A stretch of 63,979 nt of DNA, the filler included, from Hausera hauseri (Eukaryota), in assembly GCA_046269625.1 (NCBI GenBank). It is 11 parts of 11 records of this genome, joined end to end, with 100 filler letters (N's around TTAATTAATTAA, not from the genome) between each part and the next. Parts side by side here need not be neighbours in the genome. Positions count along the whole stretch, not along the records: positions 38,796 to 44,902 come from JBJURY010139871.1; 10 more parts are not named here. The stretch is one strand, 5' to 3'. The notes below the pieces were generated by a model, which was given only the letters and a program-made list of their open reading frames with translations, was not told the DNA's origin and ran no database searches. This document shows, in pieces, positions 26,457-63,979 of the stretch (positions are counted from its first letter, which is position 1; every line of letters begins with the position of its first letter). A program made the position numbers and the translations under genes.

Positions 26457-27037
26457 TAAATTGCTAGTGGACATTTATCTTCAGTGGGTGGTTCATCATC
26501 TGGCCGATCTATTATCTCAGTCTCTCTATCAATCGATTTTTTAATTAAGTCTAGTTCTTTTGTTACAGGTTCCTGAAAATGTCGCATCTCTTTGATTGTT
26601 AACATGTTTTAATTTTTAACTTGTATTGCCTGCTTATTATATTCATCATAATTTTTAATTACTTTTATTAATAGTTCTCTTCTAGAGTTTAAATAATTTT
26701 CAATTTTTTATATAATTAATTATACTTTGGCAAAGGATTGAGAACTACTCCATGTCCTTCATTAACACATTTGCATCCACCATTAAATGCCCTTAATAGT
26801 TTATAAAATTTAATTTTTTTTACTAGTTAAAGAATTGTCTTGTTTGATTTGTTCTTTTAAAAATTTTCCTATACCTTTTCCTTGATATGGAACAAAATGC
26901 AAACCCTCTCCCTTATTAGGCAAAGTCACACCATTCTTTCCTTTCATTTGTTTCAATTCTTCTTTAAGTTTTTTTGCTTCCAAATTAGTCTTCTTTGCTT
27001 GTTTTGCTTAATTAACTGCAGTCGCAACTCCACCTGC
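26457..27037 (-). pseudogene. Polinton/adintovirus-like conserved small ORFs (putative core protein and the start of the next ORF), decayed
   Basis: AGGVATAVN*AKQAK..GEGLHFVPYQGKG..GHGVVLNP resembles the AGG..AKAVN..GKGLYLKPY motif of Polinton ORFs; the next ORF has FQEPVTKEL. Confidence 0.6.
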
Positions 27038-30000
27038 AGAGACGGAGATAGAGAGACAGAGAGGCAGAGAAACATAGACAGAGACAGAGAGAGACAAAGA
27101 GAAGCAGAGAGAAAAAGGGACAGAGACACAGAGAGAGAAACAGAGGGAGAGATTGAGTGATACGTGCACAGACTGAGAGAGACAGTGACAGAGAGAGACA
27201 GCGAGACAAAGAGAGACACAGGAACAGAGAGACAGTGAGAGACATAGACAGAGACAGAGAGAGACATAGAGCGACACAGAGAAAGAGACACACACAGCGA
27301 GAGATACAGAAAGAGAAACAGCGAGAGACACAAAAAGAGAGACAACGAGAAATACAGAAAAAGAGACAGGGAGAGACAGAGACAGAGAAAGAGGCATAGA
27401 GACAGCGAGAGAATGAGACAGAGTAAGACAAAATCAGAGAGAGATAGAGAGACAGAGAGAGAAAGACAGAGAGACTGAGACAGAGAGACAGAGACAAATA
27501 GAGATAGAGACTGAAAGAGACAGAGTGACAGAGAGAGAAATAAAGAGACAGAGAAATACAGATACAGAGATACAGACAGAGACAGAGAGACTGGGATAAA
27601 GAAACAGGGTGACAGACAAGAGAGACAGAGACAGAGAGAGATAGAGATATACACATAATAAGACAGAGAGAGTGACCGACAGGCAGAAAGAGATAGAGAG
27701 AGATACACACAGACAGAGAGAATCAGAGAAAAAACAGAGACATTGACAGCAAAACAGAGAAGGATAGACAGAGAGAGACAGACATACAGGTACAGAGAGA
27801 GACAAACAGGGNNNNNNNNNNNNNNNNNNNNNNNNNNNNNNNNNNNNNNNNNNNNNNNNNNNNNNNNNNNNNNNNNNNNNNNNNNNNNNNNNNNNNNNNN
27901 NNNNNNNNNNNNNNNNNNNNNNNNNNNNNNNNNNNNNNNNNNNNNNNNNNNNNNNNNNNNNNNNNNNNNNNAGTCAAATATAGAGAGAGATACAGATACA
28001 GAGACAGAGGGGGTAAGAGATAGAGCGAGATAGAGACAGAGACAAAAACAGAGAGAGAGATTGCGAGAGAGAGANNNNNNNNNNNNNNNNNNNNNNNNNN
28101 NNNNNNNNNNNNNNNNNNNNNNNNNNNNNNNNNNNNNNNNNNNNNNNNNNNNNNNNNNNNNNNNNNNNNNNNNNNNNNNNNNNNNNNNNNNNNNNNNNNN
28201 NNNNNATAGAGACAGATAGAGAGACAGAGTGAGAAACAGTGAGAGAGACCGAGTGATACAGGCATAAGCCGAGACAGAGAGAGATAGCGAGAGGCAGCGA
28301 GACAAAGAGACACAGAAAGAGAGAGACAAAGAGCGACATAGACAAAGACAGAGAGAGACATACAGCGACACAGATAGAAAGACACACACAGCGAGAGATA
28401 CAGAAAGAGAGACAGCGAGAAATACAGAAAAAGAGACAGAGAGAGAGACAGAAACAGATAAAGAGATATAGAGACAGCGAGAGAATGAAACAGAGACATA
28501 CAAAGACAGAAATACAGGGAGAGACAGAGACAGAGAGAGATAGCGAGACAGACAGAGAAACAGACAGAGAAAGTGCGACAGAGAGACAGAGAGGGACACA
28601 GTCTAAAGGCGACAGAGTGACAGAGAGAGAGAAAGATACAAAGAGACATAGAAGGACAGAGACAGTGACAGAGACACAGACAGAGACAGAGAGAGGGAGA
28701 GACAGAAACAGAGGGAGGCACAAACAGAGAGAATCAGAGAGAGAAACAGAAACAAGGATAACGAGACAGAGAAGAAGAGACAGAAAGAGACAGACATATA
28801 ACAACAGAGAGAGAGACAGAAAGACAGGCAGACACAGAGACAAATAGGCAGAGAGACAGAGTGAGAGACAAAGAGAGAGGCAGGAAAAGAGAGAGACAGA
28901 GAGTGAGAGACAGAAAGAGAAATAGACGAACAGACAGAGCTATAGAGAGGCGGAGACAAAGACAGAGATAGAGACAGAGACAGAGACAGAGTGACTAGCA
29001 GAGAGAAANNNNNNNNNNNNNNNNNNNNNNNNNNNNNNNNNNNNNNNNNNNNNNNNNNNNNNNNNNNNNNNNNNNNNNNNNNNNNNNNNNNNNNNNNNNN
29101 NNNNNNNNNNNNNNNNNNNNNNNNNNNNNNNNNNNNNNNNNNNNNNNNNNNNNCAGGAAGATTGAGCGACAGACAGAGAGAGAGATAGAGAGAGAGGCAG
29201 AGACGGAGAAAGTGATACTGCGAGAGACAGACAAAGAGAGAGAGAGAAAGAACAGACATAGTCAGAGAGGGAGACAGAGAGAGAGCCAGAGAGAGAAACA
29301 AAGAAAGATAGAGAGCTGTGCAGACAAAGAGAGGGTGAGAGACAGACAGAGAGACAGATAGAGAGAGACAGAGAGAGGTAGTGAGATATACGCACAGAGA
29401 GAGACAGAGAGAGTGAGTGACAGCGAATGAGAGAGAGACAAACAGAAAGAGACAGAGAGACAGAAACAGATACAGAAAGAGATAGAGATAGAGAGACAGA
29501 GATAGAGAGACGGAGATACAGACAGACATAAACAGAGACAGAGACAGAGACGGAAAAAGAGAGTAACAGAGAGAGACAGAGACAGAGAGGGAGAGAAACA
29601 AAGAGAGAGCGACACAGAGATAGGGGCAGGGAGACAGAGTCAGATAGAGAGACAGAGGGAGAGACAGAGAGAGCGAGAGACAGAAACACTGAGAGACAGA
29701 GATACCAGAGACGGGGAGAGACAGAAGGCGAGACAAATGGAGATAGAGAGGGACAACGAGAGATAGGGAGAGAGACAGAAAGAGACAGAGATAGAGAGAC
29801 AGAGGGAGACATCGAGATAGCGAGACAAAGAAAGAGTCATTAAGAGATAAAGAGAAAAAGAGAGAGAGATAGAGAAAGTTAGCGACAGAGAAAAAGAGAG
29901 AGGCAAAGACAGAGAGAGGGATATTGCGATATAAAGGCAGAGTCAGAGAGGCAGACAGAGACAAACGAAGACAGAGAGAGACAGAAAGACAGAGAGAGAT

Positions 30001-33000
30001 AGAGACAGAGATAAAGGGACAGAGATAAATAGACAGAGACACAGAGACAGAGACAGAGAGCGAAAAAGAGAGCAGAGACAAAGAGCAAAGACAGAGTGAG
30101 GCAGAGAGAGAAGGAGAGCGACACAGATAGAGAGAGAGCGAGCGAGAAATACAGAAGGCAGACAGAGAGAAATACAGAAAGACAGACAGGGAGAGAAAAA
30201 TTCAGAAATAAAGAGAGAGAGAGGTAGAGACAGAGACAAAGAGGCAGAAAGAGACAGAGAAAGGTAGACAGGGATGCAGAGAGAAAGAACCAGACAGATA
30301 GAATGAGAAGGAGAGAGACAGGTAGAGAGAGACAGCGACAAAGAGAGACAAAGAGAGAAAGACAGTGACATGAAGACAGAGAGAGAGATAAAGAGAGAGA
30401 GACGGAAGAGAAAAAGACAAAGAGAGACAGAAAGAGACGGAGGGACAGAGACAGAGAGAGTGAGAAAGAGAGACAGAGAGAGACAGAAACAGAGACAGAC
30501 AGAGACAGAGACAGGGGGAGTGGTAGAGAGGGACAGGCAGACAGACAAGTGAGACTACGAGAGCCAGAGACAGAGAGAGACAGAGATAGAGTGAGAGACA
30601 GAGACAAAGATAGAGAGAAACAGAGATAGAGACCGAGTGATACAGGCACAGATTGAGAGAGAGACAGATAGATACAGCGAGACAAAGAGAGAGACAGAAA
30701 CAGTGAGACAGAGAGAGACATGGACAGAGATAGATAGAAACATATAGCGGCACAGAGAGAGACACACATCGAGAGATACAGAAAGAGAAACAGCGACAGA
30801 TACCGAAATAGAGACAGAGAGAAACGCAGAAAAAGAGACAGGGAGAGAGAGACTGAAAAAGAGACAAAGACAGCAAGAGAATGAGACAGAGACAGACAAA
30901 AACAAAGATACAGAGAGAGACAGAGGCAGAAAGATAGAGAGACAGACAGACAGAGTGAGACAGAGAGATAGAAAGAGATAAAGACTGAAAGAAACATAGC
31001 GACGGAGGGAGAGAGAGAGAGAAAGAGTCAGAAAAAAACAGAGACAGAGAGAGACACAGACAGAGAAAATCAGACAGAGAAACAGAAACAGGGATAGCGA
31101 GACGGAGAAGAAGAGACAGAGATAGACAGATAGGCAGAGAGAGACAGAGAGAGCGACAAATGGAAAGACAGAAAAAGAAAGAGACAAAGAGTGAGAGATA
31201 GAAAGAAACAGACAGACAGACAGACAGAGCTATAGATAGGCGGAGACAGAGACAGAGACAGAGACAGAGACAGACATAGATAGACAGACAGATAGACAGT
31301 GAGACAGAGAGAGAATTAGACACAAACAAAGACAGAGATACAGAGAGAGACAGAGACAGAAAGACAGAGGGGGACAGAGAGACAGAGAGAGATAGAGAGA
31401 AATACACAGAGAGACAGGGAGATTGAGCGACAGACAGAAAGAGAGATAGACAGAGAGACAGAGACGGAGAAAGTGAGACTGCTGGAGAGAGACAGAGAGA
31501 CAGAAAGAACAAACAAAGTCAAAGAGGGAGGCAGACATAGACAGAAGGCCAGAGACAGAGAGAGACAGAGAGAGATAGACAAAGAGAGATAAAGAGCTGT
31601 GGAGAGAGAGATGGTGAGAGACAGACAGATAGACAGATAGAGAGGGACAAAGAGAGATAGTGAGAGATACACAGAGAGAGATAGAGATAGAGAAAGTGAC
31701 ACTGCGAGAGATAGACGGAGAGAGAGACAGACAGAGACAGCGATAGACAGAGAGACAGAGACAGATACAGAGAGAGACAGAGATACAGACAGACATTGAC
31801 AGAGACAGAGACAGAGACAGAGAGGGACAAAGAGAAGAAGAGAGAGGCAGAGAGAGACGGAGAGGTAGAGAAACAGAGAGAGAGAGCGACACAGAGATAG
31901 AGGCAGGGAGACAGAGAGAGAGAGAGACAAAGGGAGATACAAAGAGAGCGAGACAAAAACAGCGAGAGACAGAAATAGCAAAGACAGGGAGAGACAGAGG
32001 GAGACAAATGCAGATAGAGAGGGACAACGAGAGATACAGAAAGAGAGACAGCGAAAGATACAGAAAGAGAGACAGCGAAAGATACAGAAAGAGAGACAGC
32101 GAGAGAGAGACAGAGACAGAGAGAGACAGAGGGAGACACGGAGAATGAGCGAGACAGAGAGAGACAGTGAGAGATAGAGAGAAAAACAGAGAGAAAGACA
32201 GAGAGAGTTAGCGACAGAGAGAAAGAGAGAGAGAGACAGAGACAGATAGAGGGAGACTGCAATAGAGAGCAGAGTCAGAGAGTCAGACAGAGACAGACGA
32301 AGGCAAAGAGAGTCATAGAGAGGTGGAGAGACAGAGACACAGAGACAAGGGCAGAGAGCGAATAAGAGAGCAGAGGGAGAGAGGCAGATACAGAGTGAGA
32401 CAGATAGAGACAGAGAGCGACACAGATAGAGAAAGAGCGAGAGATACAGAAGGATAGAAAGCAAAAGATACAGAAAACAGACAGCGAGAAATACAGAAAA
32501 AGAGGCAGGGAGAAACAGCGACAGAGATAAAGAGAGAGACAGAGAAAGCAAGATAGAGAGACATAGACATAGAAGGACAGAGCTAAAGAGCAATAGAGAC
32601 AGAGACAGAGTGAGAGAGAAAGAGGGAGGGAGACAGAGAGAGACTGAGAGAGACTGAGAGACAGCTAGTGATATAGAGAGAGAATCAGAGATACAGAGAG
32701 AGACAGCGATAGAGAGAAACATGGAAACAGAGAGAAAGAGAGACAGAAACAGAGAGAGACAGAGAAAGACAGAGAACGGAACAGACAGAGAGAGTGAGAA
32801 AGAGAGACAGAGAGAGACTGAAACAGAGAGAGACATAGACAGATAGAGACAGAGAGACAGAGACAGACAGAGTCAGAGAGGCAGACAAACAGAGAAAGAC
32901 AGATAGGTCGAAAGACAGAGAGAAAGATATGTAGAGACAGAGAGAGAGCGAGAAACAGAGAGAGACAGAGAGATAGAAGCAGAAACTGAAAGAGAGGCAG

Positions 33001-33960
33001 AGAGATACAGAGAGGCAGAGAGTAACAGAAAGAGAGAGACACAGAGACAGAGACAGACGAAGAGCGACACAGATACAGAGAGAGACTTCGAGATATGCAG
33101 AAAGAGAGACAGCGAGAAATACAGAAAGGCAGACAGAGAGAAATACAGAAAGGGAGACAGGGAGAGAGAGACAGAGATAGAGAGAGAGAGGGAGAGAGAA
33201 AGATAAAGAGACAGAAAGAGACAGCGAGAGACAGAGAAAGACAGAGAGGGAGATAGAAAGAAAGAACCAGACAGAGAGAGAGAAGGAGAAAAACAGAGTG
33301 ATAGAGACAGAGACAGAGACAGAGAAAGACAGAGAGATAGCGAGAGAGAGTGAGTGGGACACAGATTGAGAGAGACAGCGACAGAGAGAGAAAGAAAGAG
33401 ACATGGAGACAAAGAGAGATAAAGAGAGAGACGGAAGAGAAAAATACAGAGAGAAACAGAGAGAGACAGAGAGATAGAGGCACAGACTGAGAGAGATACA
33501 GAGAGACAGAGAGGGACAGAAAGAGAGAGACATAGATAGACATGGAGACAGGGAGAGATAAAGAGAATGAGAGACAGACATAGTAAAAGACAAAGAGAGA
33601 CGGAGAGAGACGGGACAGAGAGAGACAGAGAGAGAGACAGGGAGAGACAGAGAGAGACAGATGGAGAGACAGAGATATACACAGAGAGATACAGAGAAAA
33701 AGAGAGAGACAGAGACAGACAGATAGACATACAGAGAGAGAGACAGAGAAAGACAGATAAAGAAACAGATAGAGAGACAGAGATAAAGACAGAGGCAGAG
33801 ACAGAGAGAGACAGATACAGAGGGAGAGACAGGGAGAGACAGATACAGAGAGTCAAAGAGAGACACAGAGAGACACAGAAAGAGGGACGGACAGAGGCAC
33901 AGAGAGACACAGAGAGGGAGACATAGAGAGATACAGAGGAAGAGAGAGAGTGAGAGAAAC
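27038..33960. repeat. ~6.9-kb polypurine (GA/GACA/GAGACA) low-complexity satellite with internal N gaps
   Basis: Strand-biased A/G array; all long Ser/Leu/Val/Cys ORFs here are artefacts of the repeat. Confidence 0.97.
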
Positions 33961-34108
33961 TGAAATGAAATTACATCGCTATATATACTTCTCCAACCTG
34001 CTGTTTTATTTATATTACAAACGTATCAACATTGAGTATTTACATAGACAATCATTGTCATAAATTGCTCCTATAAGCTCCACGCATCACAAAATTCAAT
34101 GTATTCAT

Positions 34109-34267
34109 TTATTCATAATAAATATGTATCATTTCCATTACAGTACATTTACATTCTGGACACTGGTTGGTTGCTTTGGTTGTGATGTTGGAACACATTT
34201 AACAAACAACGAGATGACCACACATTAAGAACACCGTATCCAGTTTTCTTTGTTTACATAGTACACA
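34109..34267 (-). pseudogene. IAP-type RING finger fragment
   Basis: CVLCKQRKLDTVFLMCGHLVVC*MC..CPECK..IHIYYE*; DNA is homologous to 63804-63960. Confidence 0.85.
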
Positions 34268-34595
34268 CANNNNNNNNNNNNNNNNNNNNNNNNNNNNNNN
34301 NNNNNNNNNNNNNTTAATTAATTAANNNNNNNNNNNNNNNNNNNNNNNNNNNNNNNNNNNNNNNNNNNNCTTTATCCGCCTGAAACAAAGGAAGACTATA
34401 CAAACATTGTAGTTCGAACAATATGTATTGCAAACATTAAAGAATATAAAAAAAGACAGAGAAATTTTTTACTTGTGTGTACTATTCCTACATTAGCACT
34501 TGCAATATTTTTATCAAGAGTTGTTCATTAATAAATATATTTCCATGTTCAGTTGTGTATTTTATAAACAAGATCAATACCAACATGTAATTAAA

Positions 34596-38673: not shown

Positions 38674-38846
38674 CCCCTCCCCCTAGGAGGGAACCNNNNN
38701 NNNNNNNNNNNNNNNNNNNNNNNNNNNNNNNNNNNNNNNTTAATTAATTAANNNNNNNNNNNNNNNNNNNNNNNNNNNNNNNNNNNNNNNNNNNNAAAAG
38801 TTACTTTTATACGTCATATACTTTCTTTATCTCGTGACTTCTATTT

Positions 38847-39755
38847 ATGTACTCAATAACCCACCCGATGCTATTCAATGAGTCCAAGCTCCAGCCCAGC
38901 CAAAACGTAGACGAAAAAGCTTGCCGACCACGAGATACGAATATTCATTGCCATGCTAACAACGAAATCTACCAAGAACGGAAATCAGACGATGGACCCA
39001 GACGTGAAACCATCAGTTACAGTCGACCACGACACGATGATGCTAAGATAAACTACGTAAATCCGAGGCGAACTTTAAGCTCAAAGGCAGACCTCACGAA
39101 CATTGCTGAACGTTACGCGATAAGGCCTAATAACAGCACTCAGACGAAAAATAAAAACCCAGATGATCACCGTAACGACCTTCGCTGCGACATTGACGAT
39201 GACAATATCAGCAATGACAACTACTACTTTTATGACGACCCAAACCACCTCAATGACCACGCTATCCGATACAGCAGCAACTTTGAAAATACAGATTCCT
39301 ATCGCCAAAACAATTATGCTGAATATGACCATCCTGATGACAAATATAATGCTGGTGTTGATCTTGAACATGACGATTTTGACGATACATACGACAATAA
39401 TCATAACAATGACCAATACATTAATACACAAAACAACAGTTCAATACTTACTGAATATTCAATCTGCCTATATACCGATTTAACTCGATTAGACACGTTC
39501 AATGTCCACCGTTTATTCGGTTGTAGACCACAACGTAAAATATTAAAATTTTGTGAAAATAATTTTCGACAAAAAATGAACGCTTCGATGACAACACTTT
39601 TTACGCTGCATTTTTATGTTCGGTGTTGTATCTCCGTTCAGATAACTCACACATTTTTTCTTGGGGAAGTGCAGGTGTCTGAAAGTAGGTCAGTACAAAA
39701 CTTGTTTCCGACTCAATTCATTCTTCTGGTGAGTAGTAGTAGTCTTCAATTATGA
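38847..39755 (+). CDS. Asp/Asn/Tyr-rich low-complexity ORF of unknown function
   Basis: 302-aa open frame; no recognisable domain. Confidence 0.35.
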   Translation: MYSITHPMLFNESKLQPSQNVDEKACRPRDTNIHCHANNEIYQERKSDDGPRRETISYSRPRHDDAKINYVNPRRTLSSKADLTNIAERYAIRPNNSTQTKNKNPDDHRNDLRCDIDDDNISNDNYYFYDDPNHLNDHAIRYSSNFENTDSYRQNNYAEYDHPDDKYNAGVDLEHDDFDDTYDNNHNNDQYINTQNNSSILTEYSICLYTDLTRLDTFNVHRLFGCRPQRKILKFCENNFRQKMNASMTTLFTLHFYVRCCISVQITHTFFLGEVQVSESRSVQNLFPTQFILLVSSSSLQL

Positions 39756-40389
39756 GCTCGTGGTAATTTGTGCGTTCGGTTTTAAGCGTCATCGTCGTCG
39801 TCGTCGTACAAAATAAAATTCACGATTTTTACAAAACGAACACATTTACAACAATAATGACGACAATGATGATTTTGACTTTTTAACAATGAGTTTTTCG
39901 GTTGCATTTTTCACCGGATCTGTTGGTCCAATCGTGAGGCGGTTATAATATAAAAATTTTTCCCAACTTATGGACAATGTATGAGACCCATTTTCATCAC
40001 CGGCAAACTTGAACATGGGGAAATTTTACCCGACGGAAATTTTCTAACCGGCTTTCCCCATGTTCCCTTGGTCTGACGACGACGAAACGGTGTCCATTCG
40101 ATTTGCCGACATCAATTTTACCTCTGTGCAAAATGTCGGTATACCAGAAACATGTTCTGTGTCGCCCGTTGCACATTGTCCGTTTTTCTTCTTCCGCCTC
40201 CTGTGCCGCCGGGTTACATTTTTCGGCTTCGCGACGCCAGTAACTTTTGTTCGCCTTGTCCGGCTCGACCGATTGGTCTCGGTCCAAAGTCCATTGCATG
40301 AGCTTCTTCCGTCCTGCGTAAGGGGGTCTCCGACCACCAAACATGAAATGCTCGGAGTTGCGAGATAGGCGGGGAAAACTGGTTTTCAG

Positions 40390-40587
40390 GTCGATCTGAG
40401 CAATTTTTGGCAAGTGGTTAGAAGAGGACACTTCTACTTACCGGAGAGGCTTGTGGTTATGAATTATTGGTCAATTAATGGGGCGAACAAAGTTTGATCT
40501 GTGACGCTAAATGAGCTCTATAAGATGGCGAGACAGACACGGGAATCTTTCTTATATCTAACCTATGGGTAATATGTAGGAAACGGT
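40390..40587 (+). pseudogene. Possible highly diverged ATG8/LC3-like C-terminal half
   Basis: VDLSNFWQVVRR..SING..*SVTLNELY..ESFLYLTYG*YVGNG compared with LC3 VNMSELIKIIRR..VNG..STPISEVY..GFLYMVYASQETFG. Confidence 0.35.
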
Positions 40588-41399
40588 AACCATTAGGGTT
40601 GAATTTTTACTTTAATTACTAAGGAATTTCTTACCATTACCCTTACTTAATTAGTGGGGTGTCGGACCGACCGTGTGTCGGGACCTGTGCCTATTAATTA
40701 CAGACGCTTATTTAGCTTAATTAGTTACGTGGATAAAATAAAAATTATCTGTTCACGGAAGAAATACTAAAATATATTAAAAATAAATTTAACAATCATA
40801 ACAGTTAACAAAAAACTCACACGAAGACATGATGATCAACATATAATAATATTTTGTATCCTTTTTAGCGTTTTAGTTACGATATTTATAGTAGTTTTCC
40901 CAATGCCACATACGGCCAAAATATGAAAGAGCAATAAAATAAATAAATTGCGCACATACTACTTTAAATAATTATAACAACCGACTATGGCAATATTTCA
41001 GAAGCAATATAATATTCCCGACAGTAATAATTAAGTCCAACAACTGGTGACTTGCTGGTTTTAATCAATTTCAACGGACCGACAGTAATGATGAAATACA
41101 ACAGCTGGTGATTAATCAATAGTACGTGTGCGTTTCTTTATTTCCTACAAGCAGAATAAGGAATAACAAAAATAAAGTTTAACGATCAATCAATATAATA
41201 AGAATACACTTACACGAGGACATAACAACTTTATATGACTGTCCGAGTACAAGAAAACTTTGTGAAAATGTTCAAGCTAACGTCGGTATTTTTACCCATA
41301 AATCACTAGGATAAAATACTCCAAAATTGACATGTACATTAAAATAATTGGTCTACTAACAAAAATATGTTTTCATGATTTTGTTAAGTATAAGATCCA

Positions 41400-42674
41400 T
41401 ACAAAAAGCGTCGGTTTATCAACTTTAAACTTATTGTCTAAGTTAAATGCAACTACAGTCTGAAATTTCTCCTTTTCCCTAGAGTAAGGAATATTATTTA
41501 TTCTTAAAGCATCTTGTGGGGTCTGCTTAACGATTTTTAGTGTCAATCCGATGAATTTGCAATCACTATATATACAAGGTTTTGTAGAACATACGGTTCA
41601 TAAAAAATTACCGTAATATAAAAATTTCATAAAAATTCTGATAAAATATTTCCCAGATATATAAAATTACAAGGGAAATATACCTGCAAGATCACAAAAG
41701 AAAAATTAAATAACCTTTGCACAAAAAGAAACCACGTTTTTATTTATTGTTGGATCTAAGCAGCTTTTATTATAAATCGATACTGTTATTGAACAAAATT
41801 CAATATTGTTATTGAACATCTCCCCCCTCAGATGGTACGTAGTGGTTCATAAGTCAACAAAAAATAATGTGATAAGTTTAAGGTTTAAAGGTCTGAAAAT
41901 TCAGATAAATGAGTTTGGGTTCTGAAACCTCAAACTTACGTATTTACTCTAGTAAAAATAGCTCAAGAAATTAGTTTCCTAGAGCCGGTTATTTTATTTA
42001 GTCTTAAAAGCCGCCTGTGGGGTCGGCTTAAAATCAAATTTAGATATATGTGAATTCGATCACCAGATGGGACACTGGTATCGTTCCCAAATTTTAGATG
42101 ATTTTGAGGTTATACGGTTCTTTTTGACCGTAAATCAATAGGGTCCGTTTTGTTAGATTAATAAAAAGATATTATTACAATATCTATAATTTCTTCTTTT
42201 TAATTTACCAGAATTTACATCTAGGAAAATCAAAAATCAATACTATTCTATAAAGATATAATTAAACTAAAGTCAGTAAATAATCTTTAAAATGCAGACA
42301 AAAAAACAAGAAAACTTACAGGAATAATAACTGACATACATTGTGCAAGAATCAAGCATAAAAAGAATTGTGTGTCCTTTTCAATACAGTGGGTTTATAT
42401 ATCCCCTTTTGAGACAAACGATCAAATTATAATTCCGAATAAATATTTTGTAATATAAAACAATTCACGGCAAATAGATGAAATAAAAACAGACACATGA
42501 AATAGAGACGGACAATTAAATTACAATTAAATGAATTCACAATAAATACGATCAAATAGATTCGAATTAATGTATGCATTAAATAAATGTGATATTGTTT
42601 ACATTGAGAGAACAACATTTTTAAGAGTCTGTAATGTCGTCGTAATGTCGTCAGTCGTCAACAACCCCCTCCTC
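41400..42674 (-). mobile_element. Two successive PPT plus LTR-like units (far ends approximate)
   Basis: On the minus strand TCTGAGGAGGGGGT|TGTTGA (LTR start ~42663) and TCTGAGGGGGGAGA|TGTTCA (start 41818); shared motif CCTAGAG..TCTTAAA..TGTGGGGTC.GCTTAA at ~41478-41530 and ~41978-42031. Confidence 0.6.
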
Positions 42675-42745
42675 AGACAATGCTGTCCGCAGCTTTGCTG
42701 GATAGGTTTCCAGAGTGCCATTATCTAGTCGATAGGTAGATGAAT

Positions 42746-44902
42746 CTAGTAACGCCATTGTCCTTTCTTTTTAAATTTAAGTTTGAGGGTGATTGTTTGC
42801 TCTTTAGGGATTTTCTTCCTTTTTCTTTTCGAATCTGTGATTAGTATTTCGTTGGGTTCAATGATTGGAGTTGATTGGATATTACTAATTGATGGTTGTA
42901 TCGATACTTCTGATCGATTGTCCATATTTGAAGGTTTGGGAAAATTAAGGGATATTTCCAATGGTGTCTTTGTTATAATATTTGTTATTTCTAAATTATT
43001 AGTATCCATAGGTTCATCATGCGATATAGCAGTCTCTTTATCAAATAAAGTCGGAGATTTATCTGTAATTTTAAGCATTATTGATGTGGGATTTACGATT
43101 GATTTTTCACTTTTATATTCTTCCAGAGTATTATACATTTCCAACATAATTAGAGCTTTGTCTTTCGTCCTGGTTGGGTATTTGATATTATTATACTTTA
43201 AAAAGATTTGTTTTTGAGTTAACGTTCTTTTTGGATTTATGTGTTCATTATAGAATAAATCACGTATGCCCATTACTTGATCCATATTAAAAAGGGCTAT
43301 TTGAGAATTAATGTTGAATAGTGTCATCCCTACTATCATCTTTCCCACTAGTTGTTGTCGGATTGTAGGCCAGATTTGATATTGGTCGGCTTGGCCGATT
43401 AAATCTGTTTCTCTTATCCCAGTTATCTGGGTATTATAATTATCTACGCGATCTCGTGGAGTGACAAATTGGTCAAAAATAATTTTTCCTTCCAGGTTCA
43501 TTAAGGTGATTTCTATAAGAGTAGCTTCTGAACGAGTGTTTTTCATTAAGTATGCAACATTGATGGATAAAATAATCACTTCATTTTTTGAAACTGTAGA
43601 CACCCTGGAAAAGGAACATCCTTCTTCGAGTTGAGCTTTGCTGGGGAGAGGTAAATTGTAAATAGGTATATCATATTCCGGACGTGGTATTCTTTCACGT
43701 CTAGTCACCTCAATATATAAAATAGGACTAGGTCCTCCAAAAGTTCGTAGCGCGATAGCAACGTTTTTATAGAAACGTTGGTCAAGTCGAATGGTAGTGA
43801 AGGGAATAACATCCATTTGATCCGTCATATTATTTCTATGACTTCTACTTTTCAATTGAAGACTGGCTTTGATAACCGACAAGTAAACGGAGGTTGTTTT
43901 AGTGAATATGTCTATTAAATCAGATAGCAGGGTGGTTGTATTAAGTAGTTTTATAATTAATCCTGCTCTTTGGGTTACCAGATGGCCTTTGAGATTATTG
44001 GGATATAACGTAGCTTTTCCATAATATATATAGTCTTTGTGTTGTGTGGACTCCAAATTAGATGAAATATTGTAGTAGAAGGACTTGGCCCTCTCTACTG
44101 TTTCGGCACCTTCTTGGACTGAAAGAAAACACATCAATAATAACCATGAAAATCTTTTTAAAATAATCTTATGATAGGTTGTATAAGGCTTTATAGCCTG
44201 AATTTTTTTACAATTACGTTTATTTTGGTAGGTCGCTAAGATTTTCGCAGCCTCATTTTTTATATGTGTACACATACACAGTGTAACATATGTTAACGGT
44301 TGAAGTTGCCGTTTGTATTTTGGAAGCTTCTCAGCTTGAGGAGACGCACTTATTTCACTAACCTTATCATTTTGGGAATCCTCTCTTAATAATTTTAGTT
44401 CTTGCATTATTTTTCGGGCTTTATGCCTTCTACGTCTTATTCTAGAGCAATAAATTATTAAGGGCACTATTATGACTGCCAATATTAAAACTGTGCACAA
44501 TACAATTAGTGTCCATAAATATATATTTGAATTATTTTTGTTACTTTGTGTGGTTAATATTTGTGAATTTTTTGTAGTAGTTATGATAATTTGTTTTAAC
44601 GTTTTCACCATACGATAAATCATCTGTAATTACTGTCCGTCTTCGTCTAATTCTGTCATGATAACTTTATAGTTGGTATTGGCCTTTAAAAATATACAAG
44701 CTGATGTAGGCTCATTTGGGGTTATAATTCCTTCACTAATCATTCCTTCATAAAGAAAGCACTCAAATTTTATGTTTGTATTCTTCAGGTTTGATACCGT
44801 AATAATGAGAGAATGTGGCATCGACTGTATAGTTATATCCAGTTTTCTATTAATGTTCATAACCTCAATCAGTTTCTGTGTCGTTAAGCTTGTGATAGAA
44901 GT
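42746..44902 (-). CDS. Probable retroelement accessory polyprotein: FN3-like ectodomain fragment, TM helix and inactive REX4/ISG20-like DEDDh exonuclease
   Basis: 44630-44860 is in frame with the 625-aa ORF across one stop; TM LWTLIVLCTVLILAVIIVPLIIYC followed by RRRRHK; exonuclease-like IEITLMNLEGKIIFDQFVTPRDRVDNYNTQITGIRETDL..LVGKMIVG, with ExoI DxE replaced by SINVAY; PPT 70 nt after the stop. Confidence 0.75.
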
Positions 44903-51020: not shown

Positions 51021-51713
51021 AAGGCTAAAACGGAACAGTGCGTAGGACAAATCATGGAAGTACGAGATGCGGCAATGTATTTCTAGTATTTACAGACAGA
51101 CGAAGACAAGGAACAACATGACAAGAATCTAGTACTACTAAGTGGGATAATAACCAATGTCCCAGAGCCTAAACACCCGGTTGGAAGACCTAGGAAGGCC
51201 CGAGAAGGGGTTGACTATAATGGAATATTAATTAGATAGCTGAGACAGATGTCGATTCCCACCTTTAGCACCGACAATGAAGAGTTAAACGAGTTAATGA
51301 AGAATTTAATACCTATCGTAAATTATTCAACCCTTCGAGGAGATACATTAGACACTAAAGAAAAGGGGATATTTAACGCAGCTAGGACAATGAAAAATTC
51401 GCGTTTCAAGCTGTCGAAAAGCGGACTAACTGACCACGCAGTAGTTGAGAAGATTATGGTGGAAAATACGATAGAAGAGTTGAGAAAAGTATTATTGTAC
51501 TTGGCAATTAAGACAAATCCAAATCGAGAAAATCAACTAAATCGAGCTACAAGTTTGGCGCGAAAAGCATCTAGGAAGCTTCCGTGCGAAATAAGTTGGC
51601 CAAAGTTGTTTGATAAGGAAGAAGACAAAAAGAAAAATAGTAATAATGAACTCGGGGACATCATACGGAACTTGACGACATCGGATAATAACAGCCGAAA
51701 GAACGAATCTAAT
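51021..51713 (+). pseudogene. Leader region in frame with the glycoprotein, containing an AT-hook-like motif
   Basis: One frame with two stops from the contig start; KHPVGRPRK at ~51171-51197. Confidence 0.45.
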
Positions 51714-53653
51714 TGGTTAATCAGTTTGCTCACCATAATAATGTTGATAAAACAGATGGGCGCCGTCATCGTTTACGATTGCGATAGATTTAAGCTTAGA
51801 CAAAAATACTCACAAATGGATTTAGAAGCATGTAAAGATGCCAGACCACATAAATTGGAAACAAAGGAGAAGAGTTATTTCCTATACCAACAACAAGAGT
51901 TGATGTCTTTGGATGGTATGGAATGTATGCTGAGATGATCTCGTAGCATTTTACTGCGGGCTAATGCACGGGCACTCCTCAATAGTTAAACCTACAACCC
52001 TCCGATCCCAATTAATTTGGAAAGATAACACTGAAATCAGGCCAGATAAACCGTAAGATTGAAATGGGATACTATAAAACCAGAAATGCAGCCCGGAAAG
52101 ATAATCAGAGCATATAAAATAGTAGTTGGAAGGCTAGATATGCATAATAGGCACTGTAGCAGAGCAGAATACGACAACGGAAAAGGACTGGAAGCAAACA
52201 TAGTAGTAGTAGAAGACCTTTACGAATCGGAGATGCGAGTACAAAAAGTGATGTTCCATAGCGTTATTAAGCTGTATACCGAGAACTAAAAATGTCACAT
52301 ATAGGACGGAACCTGTACATTCAGAAGTTCCATTGTCATATGGGAACCGCCCACTGGAAAAGGCTGTAATTTTATTAAAATTAAGGAATTGAAATTTACT
52401 GAAACAACTGGGACACGATACGTAGACAAATTCGACATCAGTTCAAGAGCACGTGAAGATGTATCAGAGCATTATATACCTACTATATTGATCTCTGATC
52501 AGCATGGATTGAAATTTATAAAAAAATGATTTCACGTTGCGAAGTAGTAATGTTCACCACTAATTACAAAGCGTTCTTCGTAGCAGAAACGGAAATAAAC
52601 GCGAAAATATACAACTTAGAAAAGCAAGATATTAGAATTGACGATTACTTGAAAAACGGAGACGATTACTTTTATTATAAAGGATAAGTCGGGATAGCCG
52701 AACTATATTACAAAATGATAACTAATGACTACCAATTAGATACGGAAATTATGAGGACAAAATTAGCTCTTATTTATGCAAACCCGGAGTTTACCTTACC
52801 AATTATTCCCATGAGAGAAGGAATTTTTGGTTGAGTTACTGGCGAAGTCCTACTGACATATGAATGCGAGAAAAGAGTTGTACCAATCAACGTCGAATAA
52901 AAACGATGCATACAAGAACTTCCTGTAATCTACCGGAATACTCCACGTCTAGCCATGCCCCTCACTAGAGTGTTGCTGGATAATGCAACACAACCTACAA
53001 TCTTAAAGGATTGCAAAACAAGTTTGGGTAAACCAATGTTCAGACGTAGCAAAACGGAATGGGTTTGCTTACCCAATGGAGGTGTTACCATCATTCCTAA
53101 AAAGTTGACTGGAACTAATTTAGCAAAAGGAATTACTGATGACAAGTTTCAGGATGCATTTTAAAAGGGTATTTACAGGCCTAAAGAAATCGAAGCTTTT
53201 CGACAATTTCTCGCTTTTCCACGACCGCGAAAACACAAATTAAATCAAGCTATGGCATAAGTAGTCGACGATATCCGATACCAGACTAAATGGGAATCCC
53301 TGCTTGGTGCAAACCATTACCAACGGGTAACTACATAGATACTCTACAAAATATGGGGAAGATTTTTAATTTTTGGACAAGCCGCATCGGGATTCTTAGC
53401 AGTTGGTTTTTTGGTACCACTAGTAAAGGCGGTAATTCAAGCAATCATAATTGGGTACGAAATATTCACATTAACAGGATTTTTATGCAAGATCTTAACC
53501 GCAATTATTACACCATTCGGCAAAATGCTTAAAGCCTATGAAGAAAATCGATGGAAGAATGACGTTGAACGACATGTCGGCAGTCATAACTATAAACGAC
53601 GAGCAAGGCCCACATTTCTACTAAAACGGAACCCCAGAATCAGAAAAAATTAA
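51714..53653 (+). pseudogene. Class III (chuvirus/herpes gB-like) envelope glycoprotein, decayed
   Basis: Signal WLISLLTIIMLIKQMGA then VIVYDC..C..LYQQ..C..YCG..H; GTC..IVIWE..C; G*VTGEVLLTYEC..CIQELPVIYRN..PLTRVL..DC..PMF..W; GIY..FLAFP; C-terminal hydrophobic helices. Confidence 0.85.
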
Positions 53654-55585
53654 GGCATTTGTTAGGCTTATGTAGATATTATGCCACTTACGCACCAGAC
53701 AATTCGAAAATAAATGCTCCATTATATCGGCTATTGACAAAAGGTATCAAATGGAAATATCAGATGGACCGATGTCGAAAAGAAAGCGTTCGATGAAATA
53801 AAGAAAATTATAACAAGTGAACCAGTGTTGAGATACCCCGATTTCAGTTTGCCATTTATAATTAAAACACGACGCAAGTAAAAAGGGAATTGGTTACGTA
53901 TTGGCTCAGAAACCAGAAGATGATGAAATGGAAAACCCAATTGCATATGGAGGACGATCACTTAAGAAAGCTGAGAAAAACTATTCAATTACTAAACTTG
54001 AGGCACTAGCCGTAAAAGAAGCTTTAAGGCATCTTAATGTCTATGTCTATGGGCAGAAAATTATTATAGTTACCGATCATAAGGCTATTACAACGTTAAA
54101 GAAACGAGCTAATAACCAAATATGTAGGGTAAATCGGTGGATCGAAGGAATCTCCAGATACAATATTTAATTCCAACATAAACCCGGAAGCAAACATCGA
54201 CGCAGACTCTTTATCAAGACTTAAAACAAAGACAAGTACAATTACGACCACGAAGAAAGCTTAAGTCGAAGAATTAATAGAACGACAACGGGCTTTAACA
54301 CTAAATAAAACAACTAAAATTTCTTCAGAACAAGCTAAAGATAAAGTTATCCATCAAATAGTCAAATTTTCCACGCAAAGTGAAATGCCAAAAGGACGTC
54401 AGCTAAGGAAACACTTAGAGAGACACGGACATAAATATTATGCATCGAATCAAGATAATATTCTATATTACGAACGAAAGGAACGGAAACTAGTAGTTAT
54501 TCCAAAAGGATTACGAATGGAAGTCTAATGGCCAAACATGATTCACATTTAGCTGGACATATGTCATGGAAGAAAACATTAGAAAGGAGATTGAATAAGT
54601 ACTACTGGCCAAGCGTTTATATCGATGTAAAACTGTGTAGACGCTTGTGAAGTCAGTGCGACAAAACAAAAGAAAGGGAAAAATTATGTAGCGGAATTAA
54701 AACCGATTAACGTACCAGATAGACCTATGCAAGCCATGTCTATGGATATAGTAGGACCTCTACCTACAACTCACAAAAATAACAAATATATTCTGACATG
54801 CGTAGACTGTCTAACACACTTCGTTGAATTAATAGCACTAATCGACCAGAAAGCAAAAACTTTAGCAGATGCAGTAGTAAGAAGGATTATCTGTAGATAC
54901 GGACCCTTCAATCGAATATTAACCGATAAAGGAAGGAATTTTACGAGTGAATTATTTTATAGAATTTCTAAACTTTTCGACATCGAACGATTAACAACTA
55001 CCGCATATCATCCTCATTGCAACGGAATTGTCAAACATATGAATGCAACCGTTCTGCGAGTCCTATCGACCGTAGCCGCGAAGGACCAAAAAGACTGGGA
55101 AGAATTCTTAGAAGGAACACAATTTGCGATCAATACTACCCCGCATTCCGCCACAGGATTTACACTATTTTATGATGTATGGACGTGAAGCGATATTACC
55201 TACGGACTTAGGAATGACTCCGTATCACGCAAATCCGGAAGACATAAAACCAAACTTCCCAGAAGTCGTACAAATGTTATTACAAAAATGTTGGAATATA
55301 GCTAAGACGCTTATCCTTGAGTATCAAGAGCAGTTTAAGAAACAATATGATAAGAAGGCAAAACCTCACGATTTAGAAAAGGGAAACTGAGTCTACGTGC
55401 ACTACCCGGTCGAAAAAAGGGTGCGTCGTTAAAGCTTACTCGTACCGGACGAGAGCCTGACGAAATTATTAGAACCACATAAACCACTGTTTATATTAAT
55501 AAAAATGGCAAAGAAGAGGTAATATCCATACAGAGAGTCGTTAAAACAGAAATAAGACTAGAAAGACGTTATAATTTGCGATCCG
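53630..55585 (+). mobile_element. Ty3/Gypsy pol remnant: RT thumb/connection, RNase H and integrase (RT core absent)
   Basis: LRHLLGLCRYY, WTDVEKKAFDEIK..PVLRYPDFSLPF, DASKKGIGYVLAQ, AEKNYSITKLEALA, TDHK, H..GH..YYWP, MDIVGPLP, TDKGRNF, AYHPHCNG, RRYNLRS. Confidence 0.95.
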
Positions 55586-55649
55586 CAGATCAGAGTTTAA
55601 ACCGAAAACAGGACAAAAGGAAAAAAAAAAGACATCCAATATAAACAAT

Positions 55650-56915
55650 AGGCCAATATCTTACGTACAGCTAATCTTAGCATTATGGTTAATCGCCTGT
55701 TATGTTCCAAAGACCCAAGCGCAATGGTGGAATGATAGCGAATCCAGTTTGACGGATGTATATGGAATTAGTAAAAGCGGAAGGGAAGATAAAATTAGAT
55801 AGGAACAACAACACTTGGAAGGACGAAAATATGTGAAAAATTTAAAAATAATAAAGCCTATGACTCAGATTGGAAAAAGCCCCATATTTGCTTCAAAGGT
55901 GACAAAGATACTAAATAGTATATGTAAATTCGTATAAAGTTTACGAATCAAAATAAAGAAAGGATAAAAATTGTGAGTTTGGATATGGAATTTATAAAAA
56001 ATATTGCGAACTAGATTTCGGACGAATATACAAATACATAATACATATGTATTATTACCCTTATGAGATTATTCAAGTGGAGGTACGACCACAGGTCGAA
56101 ATAGCTATGCCCAAGCAAGCCCTAGCGGATAGCGTGAAACTATCCGACATAGTTCAAAGTACTGACCCCATAATTAGATCATTGGATGAAAATATAATTG
56201 AAGTTTCCAAGGATTTGGAACACCCATATATCCAGATTAAAACTGGGACAAGACTAACCGAATCCTACCAGATCTCGGTTCGATTTATACCATCTAAAGA
56301 AACAAATCCGCCAGCAGGATATTTCGCTATCAGTCGACAAAACCCAAAACCGTGCTGTAAAATACCCCAATGGTACAGTTTCGAGATACAGTTCGACCTA
56401 TGTAAGATCAGACCATATCAGCCAAGCACATACCTAAGAGGATACCGTTTAAGAAGACAAAATTGGAAGATTCCAATCAGAACGACGACAACGATTAGTA
56501 CTACTATTAAAATCGTCACGACGAGGAAAAGACCCGGAAAGCAACCGGAAAGTATTCCTATTAGATACTTATTGCAGCGAAATAATATAATATTCTTTGT
56601 CGAAGAGAAATTAAACTATGATGTAGAGATAAACTGTCGAACCCTGTATAGTAAACAAAAAGCAACACTTGCAAGAAACACGCAGACAGAGCATATAATA
56701 GAAATTAATGCAGTAGGAAAGCATAATCAAACAATCACCCTACATACTTTAACGGAAAATGTTTACCTAGAACAAAAAAATCAAAACATAGACGATATAA
56801 TTACTACATATATGACAACACAGAAACCAATTGAATTAACAACTTTACCTATTGTATAAATGTTCGGAGTGTCAGGGTTCGTCTTGATAATAATAATAGC
56901 GTCACTTTATTGCTA
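55650..56915 (+). pseudogene. Type-I membrane protein in the env position, apparently unrelated to gB
   Basis: Signal-like YVQLILALWLIACYVPKTQA; ectodomain ORF 56047-56859 with Thr-rich stalks; TM in frame after one stop (MFGVSGFVLIIIIASLYC). Confidence 0.6.
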
Positions 56916-57109
56916 AAAATTGTAAAAAACAGCGCAAAAATAAGGATAAAGAAATAATGGTGGTATACCAGAGTGATTTATATGATAAAATAATCTGGAA
57001 ATTACAGGTCGGGTTATTCTGTCATCAGACAGTGAAAATATTTCATTTCGAAATACGAATATGTCTTAAGAATAATTTTATTTACTTTTATTTCAGATTG
57101 GTAAGTAAA

Positions 57110-57769
57110 ATGGCAAGTCGAAAGAAAAGCTGTGACCAGACAGACATCGACGAATTTTTACAGTCAAACGCGATGATAATAACACCCAACTCCAAAGCTA
57201 CATATCGGCAAATCCATGTAGAACTGCAGAATAGAACATCAGTGGAATATAATCAGATGGACAAAATCCCTAACAACTTGAAGGAGATCGTGGAAGAAAA
57301 CAGAGTAAATCGATTATACGCCATAAGAAACAACGAAGGTGCCCGATCCTACAACCTAAAAAAACTAATAAAATCCGAGATAGGACCTCCATGTAGTGTG
57401 TATATACATCTAGCTGAAGGAGAAATTTATTACAGATTAGATGGACAGAACTGGAACTCAAACAAAGGACGGCAATACAAATTCAGCACTTTCAAGCTGG
57501 ATGGTAAAAGCTTATACGAGACCGAAGCAGAATTAAGGATCTCATACTTAGCCGTAAAATTAATGTTGGAAATCACCTGTGAAGAAGTTTCAACCTTACT
57601 TCTGCCCCCTCTAATATACCACCAGTACCCAACAGAGGATCAAATAAAACGACACTTTGGTTCATATAAGCTAGTACAAAAGAATGGAACATTCGCATCA
57701 TTTCAACGAATTACGGAAAAGGGGATGACGGAAATTCTATTCCCATCGAAATCTCCATTCGAGTCATAA
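57110..57769 (+). CDS. Retroelement accessory ORF of unknown function
   Basis: Open frame MASRKKS..; preceded by the strong acceptor TTTACTTTTATTTCAG (57081-57096). Confidence 0.55.
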   Translation: MASRKKSCDQTDIDEFLQSNAMIITPNSKATYRQIHVELQNRTSVEYNQMDKIPNNLKEIVEENRVNRLYAIRNNEGARSYNLKKLIKSEIGPPCSVYIHLAEGEIYYRLDGQNWNSNKGRQYKFSTFKLDGKSLYETEAELRISYLAVKLMLEITCEEVSTLLLPPLIYHQYPTEDQIKRHFGSYKLVQKNGTFASFQRITEKGMTEILFPSKSPFES

Positions 57770-58526
57770 ATGGAGTAGAAGTTTAGTCTAGAATAATCAT
57801 ACATCAGAAAAGAGTAAGGGAGACATTTGCAGAGATAATGTAAAGCAGAAAAGGGGATTTAACCAATGGAAAGGACGCCAAAATTGTGGAATTAGAAATA
57901 AATCACTGTTTATATGGGTGCATGATTGCAGGATTTCAAACCCAGGAACAAATTGACAAACTGAGAGTAAACCGTGAAAAAATAGAAGGAATACGTAAAT
58001 TTTGGACCCACCCCGAAATTAAAGAAAGAATGGATAAGGTGAACCGACCAGTTCCTGTGATTATAACGACCCAATTTAGAGCAATGATACAGATCATGAA
58101 CGGAACCCACTATAGAATTAATCGACAGCGAATCGTAGAACACAAGGGATAATAATATGCAAATTATGGTGTTAAACCAAGAGAATATTGTTCAACATAA
58201 ATCAAGCAGCGTTACGTATGGATTTCAAGCACATATAAAGACAAAAAATTTGAGGAAAGTCATCAAGGAACATCAACCAAAAAGCACAAACTGAGAAACC
58301 CATGCGAAGAAAAGAAAACGAAATTAGTATTCGGGTTCCTAAAGAAAAGAGATAATGGATCATCCAAAATTGGGCAAGCTGAAAAACGTTCTATGAAAGA
58401 AACCACCGAAAGTATACTAAAGAAAATTAAAGAAGTTAACGTTCTAAAAAGGAAAAAGAAAGTCTACGAAAAACAACCACATAGACGAATCAAAACGACG
58501 AAACAGAATGGCCCAGAATCTTAATC

Positions 58527-59042
58527 ATGGCAGAGTATGTAAGTCATGGAAAGATCAAAGAAGCAGTATTTTATATCTATACAATGCCAATATTGGAAAT
58601 ACAGAAAAACGCCTACGCTCCAATCGACCCGAAGTTAGGAAGATATTTATCGTCAGTATTCAGATCAAAGATAGGAACTAAAAAGATAACCGTGTCGGTG
58701 GATAACCAAGCTAGGATAGAAGTAAAAGAACAGTATAAGAAAATGGGAATCCCGGATTTAGATGCTCAACAAGTAGTAGAATGGACCCTTATAGCCGTTA
58801 ACGGCGACCCCAGAAAAAGCTCCATAGACCCTAAACAGAAGCAGTTGCACAAATACCTCTATAAGAATTTCAAAGGATTGTTGTTCCAAGAGATAACATG
58901 GATTACGGACTGTGATCTAGACAATGATACCAAAAATTTCTGCCCTGTATGTGAAGCAAACTTATGGCAGGATTATGTGGTGCTACGAATAGGAATTGTT
59001 GACACCGACACTGTCGAGATTGTTTGGAACAGTGGACGTTGA
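58527..59042 (+). CDS. Retroelement accessory ORF with CxxC, function unknown
   Basis: 171-aa intact frame between integrase and PPT; A-rich codon use like the rest of the element. Confidence 0.55.
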   Translation: MAEYVSHGKIKEAVFYIYTMPILEIQKNAYAPIDPKLGRYLSSVFRSKIGTKKITVSVDNQARIEVKEQYKKMGIPDLDAQQVVEWTLIAVNGDPRKSSIDPKQKQLHKYLYKNFKGLLFQEITWITDCDLDNDTKNFCPVCEANLWQDYVVLRIGIVDTDTVEIVWNSGR

Positions 59043-59440
59043 TTAATGGAAAAACAACATTTCCAGTATGTCAAGCAGAGTGATCTCAGTTGAAATACTT
59101 TCCCCGCGGAGAGAATAATCGCATAGTTGAGATAAAAGCACCTACCGCTTATTACCTGGAACCGAATCCCCAAACTAGTATGCGGGTCAATTCCGAAAAC
59201 GATTTACGAGAAAGGCTAAATGCGTTACAACGCCCAAACGATGGCGCCACCTCTCCTGACGCAATAGGCACATCCAAGGATTTCGCTCAGGGAGGAGAAA
59301 TGTTGTAAATGAGTAGAGGTGTAAAAAAAAAGTATTCACACGCACATAATATTTACATATTGGGGACATTCGTTTAACGAGAACGTTAAACCGAATCTGC
59401 TATTAAGACATTAATTTCAAGTGTAAATTACGTTATATGT

Positions 59441-59649
59441 AGAGGGGAGTGATAAGGGCCACCCTAATATATAACATTTNNNNNNNNNNTGTTAATGAAC
59501 AATAGTTAAATATGACTGTGATTAAATGAACACTTGATTAGGCCCTTCCTCTAATTGAGTGAATGAGTAAATTTATCTATAATAAAAAATCCTTCAAAAT
59601 ATCATGTCTTGATTCTTCCATGGTAAACAATCTACTAGTAATTTCATCA
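59441..59649 (+). mobile_element. PPT and 3' LTR (end approximate)
   Basis: AGAGGGGAG then TGATAAGG at 59450; AATAAA at 59581; candidate end ..ATCA at 59649. Confidence 0.6.
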
Positions 59650-60029
59650 TTTATTGTGGTTTAATTCATTCTACTTTTGAAAATTCTCCTCTACCTCTAT
59701 CTTGAATTTGAATGAGTTGGCCACAAAGTTCCACATATTCAGTTCTTTGGATATTCATACATGAAACTGTTCTGTCTGGTGACGCTTGTGGTTCGTCTAC
59801 ATTAATTAATTCGTTATTCTTAATTTCTATGCTCACTGGATTATACCAATCAGTTTGTATTCCATATTCTAGTAATAAATCATCATCNNNNNNNNNNNNN
59901 NNNNNNNNNNNNNNNNNNNNNNNNNNNNNNNTTAATTAATTAANNNNNNNNNNNNNNNNNNNNNNNNNNNNNNNNNNNNNNNNNNNNCTCTTTGTTTTAT
60001 TATAACAAAGTCGAGTAACATAATTTACA

Positions 60030-62944: not shown

Positions 62945-63270
62945 AACACGCACGCATGAATTCGGTGCAGACGATACAGACAGATTAAATTTCTGTGACA
63001 ATTCATTGTGATCTGTTTGTTTTTTATAAATAATGCATATTATTCTTTGTTTTTCCTTTGGTTTTATTACCCTTTAATTTATCTATTTAACTTAATGTGA
63101 CAAGAAACAATTTGAAAAGAAAAATCAATAAAACTTATTAATCACTATAAGCTAAAATTAAAAATCAAAGTAAGTTAGATCAGCGTAAACTTCTCCAGCT
63201 TCCATATTGGTGACTTAATGCCGTGCAGATCCTTGTATCCCTTCAGCTTTAATGTTAAATGACCTTTAGC

Positions 63271-63977: not shown

Positions 63978-63979
63978 TT

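Follow-up and report, generated by a model that had tools for sequence, protein, structure and literature searches.

The window, that is, the whole stretch of 63,979 nt that was analysed, is made up of unrelated contigs with spacers between them, and the true context of the gene described here is limited to positions 38796-44902. On the minus strand of this contig the frame 42746-44629 is open for 627 codons from stop to stop and for 625 from the first Met, the latter being the length stated in the first-pass annotation, and the region 43140-43580, in which that annotation had placed a nuclease, corresponds to residues 350-497. The features of this contig are listed below in 5' to 3' order along the minus strand:

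44633..44902, minus strand: end of an ectodomain-like (FN3-like) frame, cut at the contig end
44444..44518, minus strand: transmembrane helix, residues 38-62 (hydropathy 3.41)
44119..44134, minus strand: Met166 (44134-44132), where the accessory gene may start, as read from the sequence
43694..44125, minus strand: AlkB/2OG-oxygenase-like double-stranded beta-helix domain, residues 169-312, from the predicted model
43115..43582, minus strand: REX4/ISG20-type DEDDh domain, residues 350-505, with five of five catalytic residues replaced (phmmer, model and alignment)
42746..43114, minus strand: poorly conserved Ser/Thr/Pro-rich tail with the stop at 42746-42748, of low confidence in the single-sequence model
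42664..42674, minus strand: polypurine tract (PPT), seen in the sequence
41868..42663, minus strand: 3' LTR of about 796 nt, TG...CA, termini and signals read from the sequence; a single LTR is present
41475..41829, minus strand: second purine tract with TG and a diverged LTR-like stretch, of low depth

The ectodomain-like frame shares its reading frame with the long ORF, and one stop (44630-44632) lies between them. It matches Pfam Tor_FN3_1st weakly (E=0.081), a four-repeat profile made from the polyproteins of two relatives, L001 and L002, has its best window match at 44803-44660 (iE 0.016, a weak, positional match), and pairwise BLAST of the upstream ectodomain against relatives gave marginal matches. 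The helix follows a Thr/Asn-rich stalk and precedes an Arg run. Met166 lies in a pyrimidine tract closed by a splice-acceptor-like CAG (44121-44119; tract and CAG together 44129-44119), and the first ATG after this candidate acceptor is that of Met268. Judged from its sequence, a basic cluster near residues 601-606 of the tail is a possible nuclear signal. A word-based homologue search with the ORF as query gave no match, and neither a tRNA gene nor a credible Rfam match was found.

The PPT and LTR that had been proposed just downstream of the ORF are borne out. The tract at 42674-42664 is followed by TG at 42663, TATA-like TATATAA at 42401, poly(A)-signal-like AATAAA at 41998, and CA at 41868. 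In run X1, possibly the source data themselves and not independent (a small share is in X2), the summed contig depth was 90-1382 over the ORF and LTR stretch and 11 at 41652-41855; this drop beyond 41868 supports the LTR end at that position and is the pattern that an element present in many copies would give if it ended here. With its PPT, its TG...CA LTR and its many copies, the stretch qualifies as the 3' end of an LTR retrotransposon. Among the matches listed (16 of 6083), the six contig pieces over the nuclease domain are about 5-20% different and gap-free, and 10 of the 12 pieces in the ORF are without gaps; the six well-supported differences listed in the ORF comprise three synonymous and three non-synonymous ones, too few for interpretation. 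The second purine tract and TG (41475-41829) begins 40 nt past the LTR end and shares with the first LTR a 57-nt motif (77% identity, E=1.7e-5), and is probably part of an older related element beside which the present one inserted. Assignment to Troyka was considered and rejected: those elements need CG...CG termini, an LTR of 100-400 bp and no env, according to the part of the source that was available (PMC12440569), as opposed to the TG...CA termini and about 796 nt found here. Further along the contig lie a very high-copy repeat (39400-40430), with a summed X1 depth mostly of 7000-15000 and many internal rearrangements between copies, and an Asp/Asn-rich frame of 305 codons (38838-39755) with no Pfam match.

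A predicted two-domain protein

The DEDDh domain matches human ISG20 (1wlj) with E=1.3e-6 in phmmer, followed by ISG20L2 (9.7e-5) and SDN1 (0.006), which places the similarity above chance, and the profile of its family gives E=5e-31 with ISG20L2 and 4e-20 with ISG20. An AlphaFold model of residues 169-505, built on a 40-sequence alignment (pLDDT 88.6, pTM 0.84), aligns in its DEDDh half with ISG20 over 151 residues (Z 16.2, rmsd 2.5), and the predicted DnaQ-like fold is closest to that protein; folding the whole ORF from its sequence alone gave a model too poor to use (pLDDT 34.5). The catalytic columns (D, E, D, H, D), read from an alignment anchored on the REX4-like match, are occupied by S355, N357, I440, T486 and K491, so that none of the five is kept; the I440 assignment is approximate because there is a one-residue insertion at that column. 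The first-pass annotation had described a catalytically dead REX4/ISG20-like DEDDh domain at 43140..43580, and both halves of this description are upheld, with the modelled active site combining an ISG20-like fold and replaced catalytic residues. Pfam RNase_T is a weak match, at E 0.0067-0.044 and under the Pfam cut-off.

The first-pass annotation overlooked the domain just upstream of the nuclease. The N-terminal half of the model resembles E. coli AlkB (Z 13.1, rmsd 3.1, 141 residues), with ALKBH6 (Z 12.5), Ofd2 (12.3) and ALKBH7 (12.1) as further fold matches and the best cupin row at 9.1. Residues 169-312 are modelled with pLDDT mostly >90, and the predicted structure shows the double-stranded beta-helix core together with flanking elements of AlkB type. 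The match covers about 141 of 200 AlkB residues at 6-10% identity, the domain being shorter than AlkB, and it was recognised from the fold only, as sequence searches with this domain gave no match. For the family member P0020, an independent Atlas model shows a beta-helix barrel matching cupin-type folds at TM 0.5-0.6. The HxD/E...H iron triad and the RxxxxxR motif are missing in P0001, going by strands assigned via the secondary structure of the model and not by residue-level superposition; among 40 N-domains of the family an HxD/E-like match occurs in one and RxxxxxR in none, and a His common to 34 of the 40 is also lost in P0001 and P0002. As the DEDDh residues are replaced and the iron/2OG motifs missing, neither domain has its catalytic site in the copy described here. 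The similarity to AlkB is one of predicted fold and says nothing of function. The modelled product is compact and has two domains, the AlkB-like beta-helix and the REX4/ISG20-like DEDDh domain, followed by a variable tail; by sequence and model it resembles the REX4/ISG20 and AlkB families but is no catalytic member of either.

Intact and dead relatives and their loci

A HMMER search of 1.84 billion representatives returned 106 matches at E up to 0.001, of which 41 were assigned to a family sharing the upstream domain, most because a profile of that domain matched them and four (P0011, P0018, P0024, P0068) because their nuclease-domain motifs were recognised by eye. Fifty of the remaining 65 aligned over sufficient length, and 36 of these have the canonical site. 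The query, three further proteins and three ORFs of the loci described below bring the 41 to 48 family rows, from which the ORFs of L001 and L004 were omitted as near-duplicates of P0029 and P0097. The site is intact (DE(D/E)HD) in 29 rows, dead in 16 and truncated in three, a dead share that may be inflated because the dead query favours conserved dead members. None of the five catalytic residues is kept in 14 of the 16 dead rows, while P391, R392, D415, G434, G454 and R456 are kept in all 16 at a median pairwise identity of 24%. The closest relative, P0002 (E=1.8e-24, 27% identity), also keeps none of the five, which rules out decay of a single copy; the earlier idea of a pseudo-nuclease that is kept, not one decaying in a single copy, consequently holds up. 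Its wording as a captured pseudo-nuclease holds for the REX4/ISG20 type but not for the capture, since the domain is half of a two-domain protein whose family, as far as sequence comparison can tell, is old and has an intact site in its majority, and is not a stand-alone acquisition.

All 16 dead rows fall into one group (support 88/91) in the nuclease-domain tree, which takes in the catalytic columns themselves as well as long branches, and the cellular-type matches, which lack the N-terminal domain, form a separate starred group. The independent N-domain tree needs seven changes of site state, two of them forced by starred branches, so that the two trees together allow either one catalytic loss or several. 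No relative was found in scans of viral contigs and of phage records. One metagenome scan yielded five confirmed loci among 285 pattern matches, all five with intact sites. Two of them, L001 and L002, each encode one polyprotein (3012 aa in L001, 3221 aa in L002) in which a Monjiviricetes-type fusion glycoprotein (E 9e-84 in L001, 5e-94 in L002) is followed by protease, RT, RNase H, integrase, ectodomain and membrane helix up to a stop, after which the accessory ORF follows. In L005 a membrane-protein ORF stands upstream of the accessory gene, and in all three loci whose upstream ORF was examined (L001, L002, L005), as in a second element of the window described below, the accessory gene is an ORF of its own. 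An AG lies at most 13 nt before its ATG in these four of six cases, and none within that distance in L003 or L004. As for the 3' side of the ORF, a purine run with TG is clear in L003 and L004, weak in L001 and was not found in L002 or L005 (five loci checked).

The polyproteins of L001 and L002 end in a helix resembling residues 38-62 of the ORF, and this helix is best read as the tail of an upstream polyprotein because those of the relatives end likewise before a separate accessory ORF; in the present copy, judging from the sequence, the polyprotein tail and the accessory gene share one continuous frame. Since the gene is a separate ORF in L001, L002 and L005, a spliced or internally started message appears likelier than tethering. 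Of the two routes of expression that had been suggested earlier, a membrane tether or a spliced mRNA, the latter thus fits better, and the supposed anchor is probably the end of the polyprotein. Several minor observations were made on the same loci: a ubiquitin-like domain upstream of env, towards the N-terminus of the L001 polyprotein (L001 440-740; Pfam ubiquitin E=0.0095, below the cut-off); two aspartic-protease-like stretches in the L001 polyprotein and three in that of L002; FN3-like ectodomains that recur in both polyproteins along with membrane helices, in L002 also between env and RT; and extra ORFs flanking the accessory gene (L001 9207-9875, L002 11613-12050), coiled-coil by eye and with no Pfam match. 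A Bcl-2-like stretch seen by eye in L002 was unsupported on checking.

The second element of the window, on another contig, contributes one more feature:

57110..58041, plus strand: broken member of the accessory family, without the ExoI acids (family profiles E 2.7e-10 and 5.2e-12)

This reading was aligned with X at its stops, and is preceded by remnants of gB-like env, RNase H and integrase (Pfam RT_RNaseH and rve); the env-like region matches L001 and L002 at E 3e-47 and 1e-57. The decayed element as a whole spans 51021-59479 on the plus strand, with a gB-like env region that precedes RNase H and integrase, most of RT being missing, and with an ectodomain ORF besides the accessory gene; additional ORFs occupy 58201-59042, and a run of purines lies close to the end of the contig. 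A second DEDD-like stretch noted by eye (58485-59042) was matched neither by the family profile nor by Pfam. A gB-type env upstream of PR-RT-RH-IN is seen in L001 and L002 and in part in this second element. The contig of the present copy ends (44902) before env and pol, so that its type is taken from relatives, whose full context comes from two members, L001 and L002, both with intact sites. Gag family matches were absent from L001 and L002, the 5' ends of which lie outside the fetched loci. The gene belongs to an LTR retroelement as a 3' accessory gene, and this element is most likely of Ty3/gypsy type with a gB-type envelope upstream of pol.

Known systems and possible roles

Accessory genes with one or the other of these folds have been reported separately in retroelements. 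The bdelloid LTR retrotransposons Juno and Vesta carry an extra 3' ORF3 encoding a DnaQ-like DEDDy exonuclease, for which a role in RNA 3' processing or silencing is put forward as a proposal only (Rodriguez et al. 2017, PMC5408684); the intact DEDDy ORF3s of bdelloid retroelements are also cited in PMC6338049. The likeness lies in a 3' accessory ORF with a DnaQ-like exonuclease in an LTR retroelement, but the bdelloid enzyme is RNase D-like with intact invariant residues, and the portion of PMC5408684 available mentions no AlkB-like partner, whereas the present protein is of REX4/ISG20 DEDDh type, fused to an AlkB-like domain and dead in 16 of 48 members. In Phalaenopsis, Gypsy elements have an additional AlkB ORF with demonstrated RNA binding (Alvarado-Marchena et al. 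2022, PMC9289625). There, too, an AlkB-type domain sits in an additional ORF; it is described as a recent, catalytically active m6A demethylase of plants, unlike the present domain, which can be recognised only by its fold, has no iron triad and forms a fusion with a nuclease domain. The gB-type (HSV/gB) GAG-ENV-POL errantiviruses place a gB-type envelope before a Ty3/gypsy pol (Chary and Hayashi, eLife, PMC13524379), the same env-before-pol order as in L001, L002 and the second element of the window; they have GAG, which was undetected in L001 and L002, where the 5' ends are outside the loci. The terms exonuclease, DEDD and AlkB are absent from the main text of that paper, and its supplements may bear on this.

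Among cellular proteins, ISG20, ISG20L2 and REX4 (REXO4) share the fold and scaffold motifs of the DEDDh domain but are without the N-terminal domain, while the present copy is without all five catalytic residues. Maelstrom and EXD1 are inactive DEDD derivatives of piRNA pathways, with RNA binding proposed to be kept (PMC5408684); they likewise have a DEDD fold without the canonical acids, but are host genes of other DEDD branches, to which no sequence or structure match was obtained here. No title or abstract in the literature searched describes an AlkB-like/DEDDh fusion (subscription journals and Repbase entries lay outside this scope), and an AlkB-fold/DEDDh accessory gene family of env-bearing retroelements, doubly dead in the present copy, is apparently undescribed.

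The reading we favour, with a probability of about one half, is that of a retained, non-catalytic accessory protein that binds and shields nucleic-acid ends, plausibly in counter-defence. Its ancestor would have been an active 3'-5' exonuclease in which the AlkB-like domain, already non-catalytic, aided substrate engagement, and several lineages would later have given up cutting while retaining the fold. A spliced or internally started subgenomic message would give a soluble protein of about 460 residues, which may bind 3' ends of the element's own RNA or cDNA or of host small RNAs, and the bound ends would then be shielded or sequestered from host trimming and surveillance. Both parent folds, AlkB-like and DEDDh, act on nucleic acids. 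A nucleic-acid substrate is indicated for the family because the exonuclease scaffold is retained as a whole, along with two arginines that are invariant, and most relatives have full nuclease sites; these same features speak against a possible but less favoured reading in which the dead protein is a decoy or scaffold that binds a host or element protein instead (a host exonuclease partner, an oxygenase substrate, or Gag/integrase). Such a role would accord with the missing triad in essentially all AlkB-like domains and their reduced length relative to AlkB, and several of the conserved residues may be structural. Poxvirus C16, in which a 2OG-type domain has no catalytic role but binds a protein of the host, offers a parallel, and the N-terminal domains of vaccinia C16 are among the fold matches (Z 9.5).

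How the protein is made bears on another, unlikely reading, a fusion in which translation continues from the polyprotein tail and the helix of residues 38-62 holds the product at membranes, or a signal-like stretch (158-174) allows its release. The frame is indeed open from the helix to the end, Met268 is the first Met after the acceptor, and the domain in P0002 is preceded by a similar hydrophobic stretch, but the gene is a separate ORF in L001, L002, L005 and the second element of the window, only P0034 among the 36 family proteins scanned has a hydrophobic window, pyrimidine tracts translate into such stretches, and a search of longer proteins revealed no fused form among 3267 candidates, which is weak evidence. 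That the dead forms are drifting passengers in slow decay under relaxed selection, or are kept for the N-terminal domain only, is improbable: the long branches among dead members, the broken second copy in the window, the in-frame stop upstream of the present ORF and the non-synonymous nature of three of the six differences listed would all agree with it, but the losses are concentrated on catalytic columns, 14 of the 16 dead members having kept 0/5, whereas six columns elsewhere stay invariant between proteins of about 24% identity, and the diverged pieces over the nuclease domain are gap-free among the matches listed (16 of 6083). Cutting through a rebuilt site, for which Maelstrom gives a precedent within the DEDD fold, is very improbable; the family-specific D415 is present in 16/16 dead members, with D457 and E503 near in sequence, but it is equally frequent in intact members, and no conserved His/Cys or acidic cluster is available as a replacement.

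A broader and so far tentative proposal is that a family of envelope-bearing retroelements encodes a dedicated counter-silencing protein whose dead AlkB-like domain might read an RNA feature, for instance a modified base, while the exonuclease domain trims the 3' end or, where it is dead, caps it; this is doubtful at present. If true, it would be an animal retroelement suppressor of small-RNA or RNA-mark surveillance that has changed from an enzyme into a clamp on more than one occasion. To our knowledge, whether animal LTR retroelements have counter-defence genes of their own is largely open, in contrast to complex retroviruses and RNA viruses, which have them. Moreover, exonuclease and AlkB accessory activities would here be joined in one protein, and a layer of 3' genes may have gone unannotated in the gB-type env-pol elements published so far. 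The family provides natural matched sets of the same two-domain protein, with the nuclease site intact in 29/48 and without it in 16/48, and a role in cutting versus binding is directly testable because these sets exist.

Other contents of the window

The remaining contigs hold unrelated material, including a ubiquitin-protease fragment besides bacterial genes, polinton-type polymerase and retroelement pieces. The bacterial contig (34370-38695: S41 tail-specific protease, GreA, PurH-like) stands amid eukaryotic contigs, indicating a mixed assembly. Fragments of a polinton-like protein-primed polymerase were seen at 9615-14390 (by eye) and 59988-63979 (DNA_pol_B_2 at 60906-61793), and a further integrase remnant at 20998-21581 (E 7e-24 to L001). 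Repetitive sequence includes a 78-nt repeat in five copies (12700-14012) and a purine-rich microsatellite of about 8 kb (26407-34269); the 84 nt at 34186-34269 are found again on a different contig, at 63875-63958, with 90% identity.
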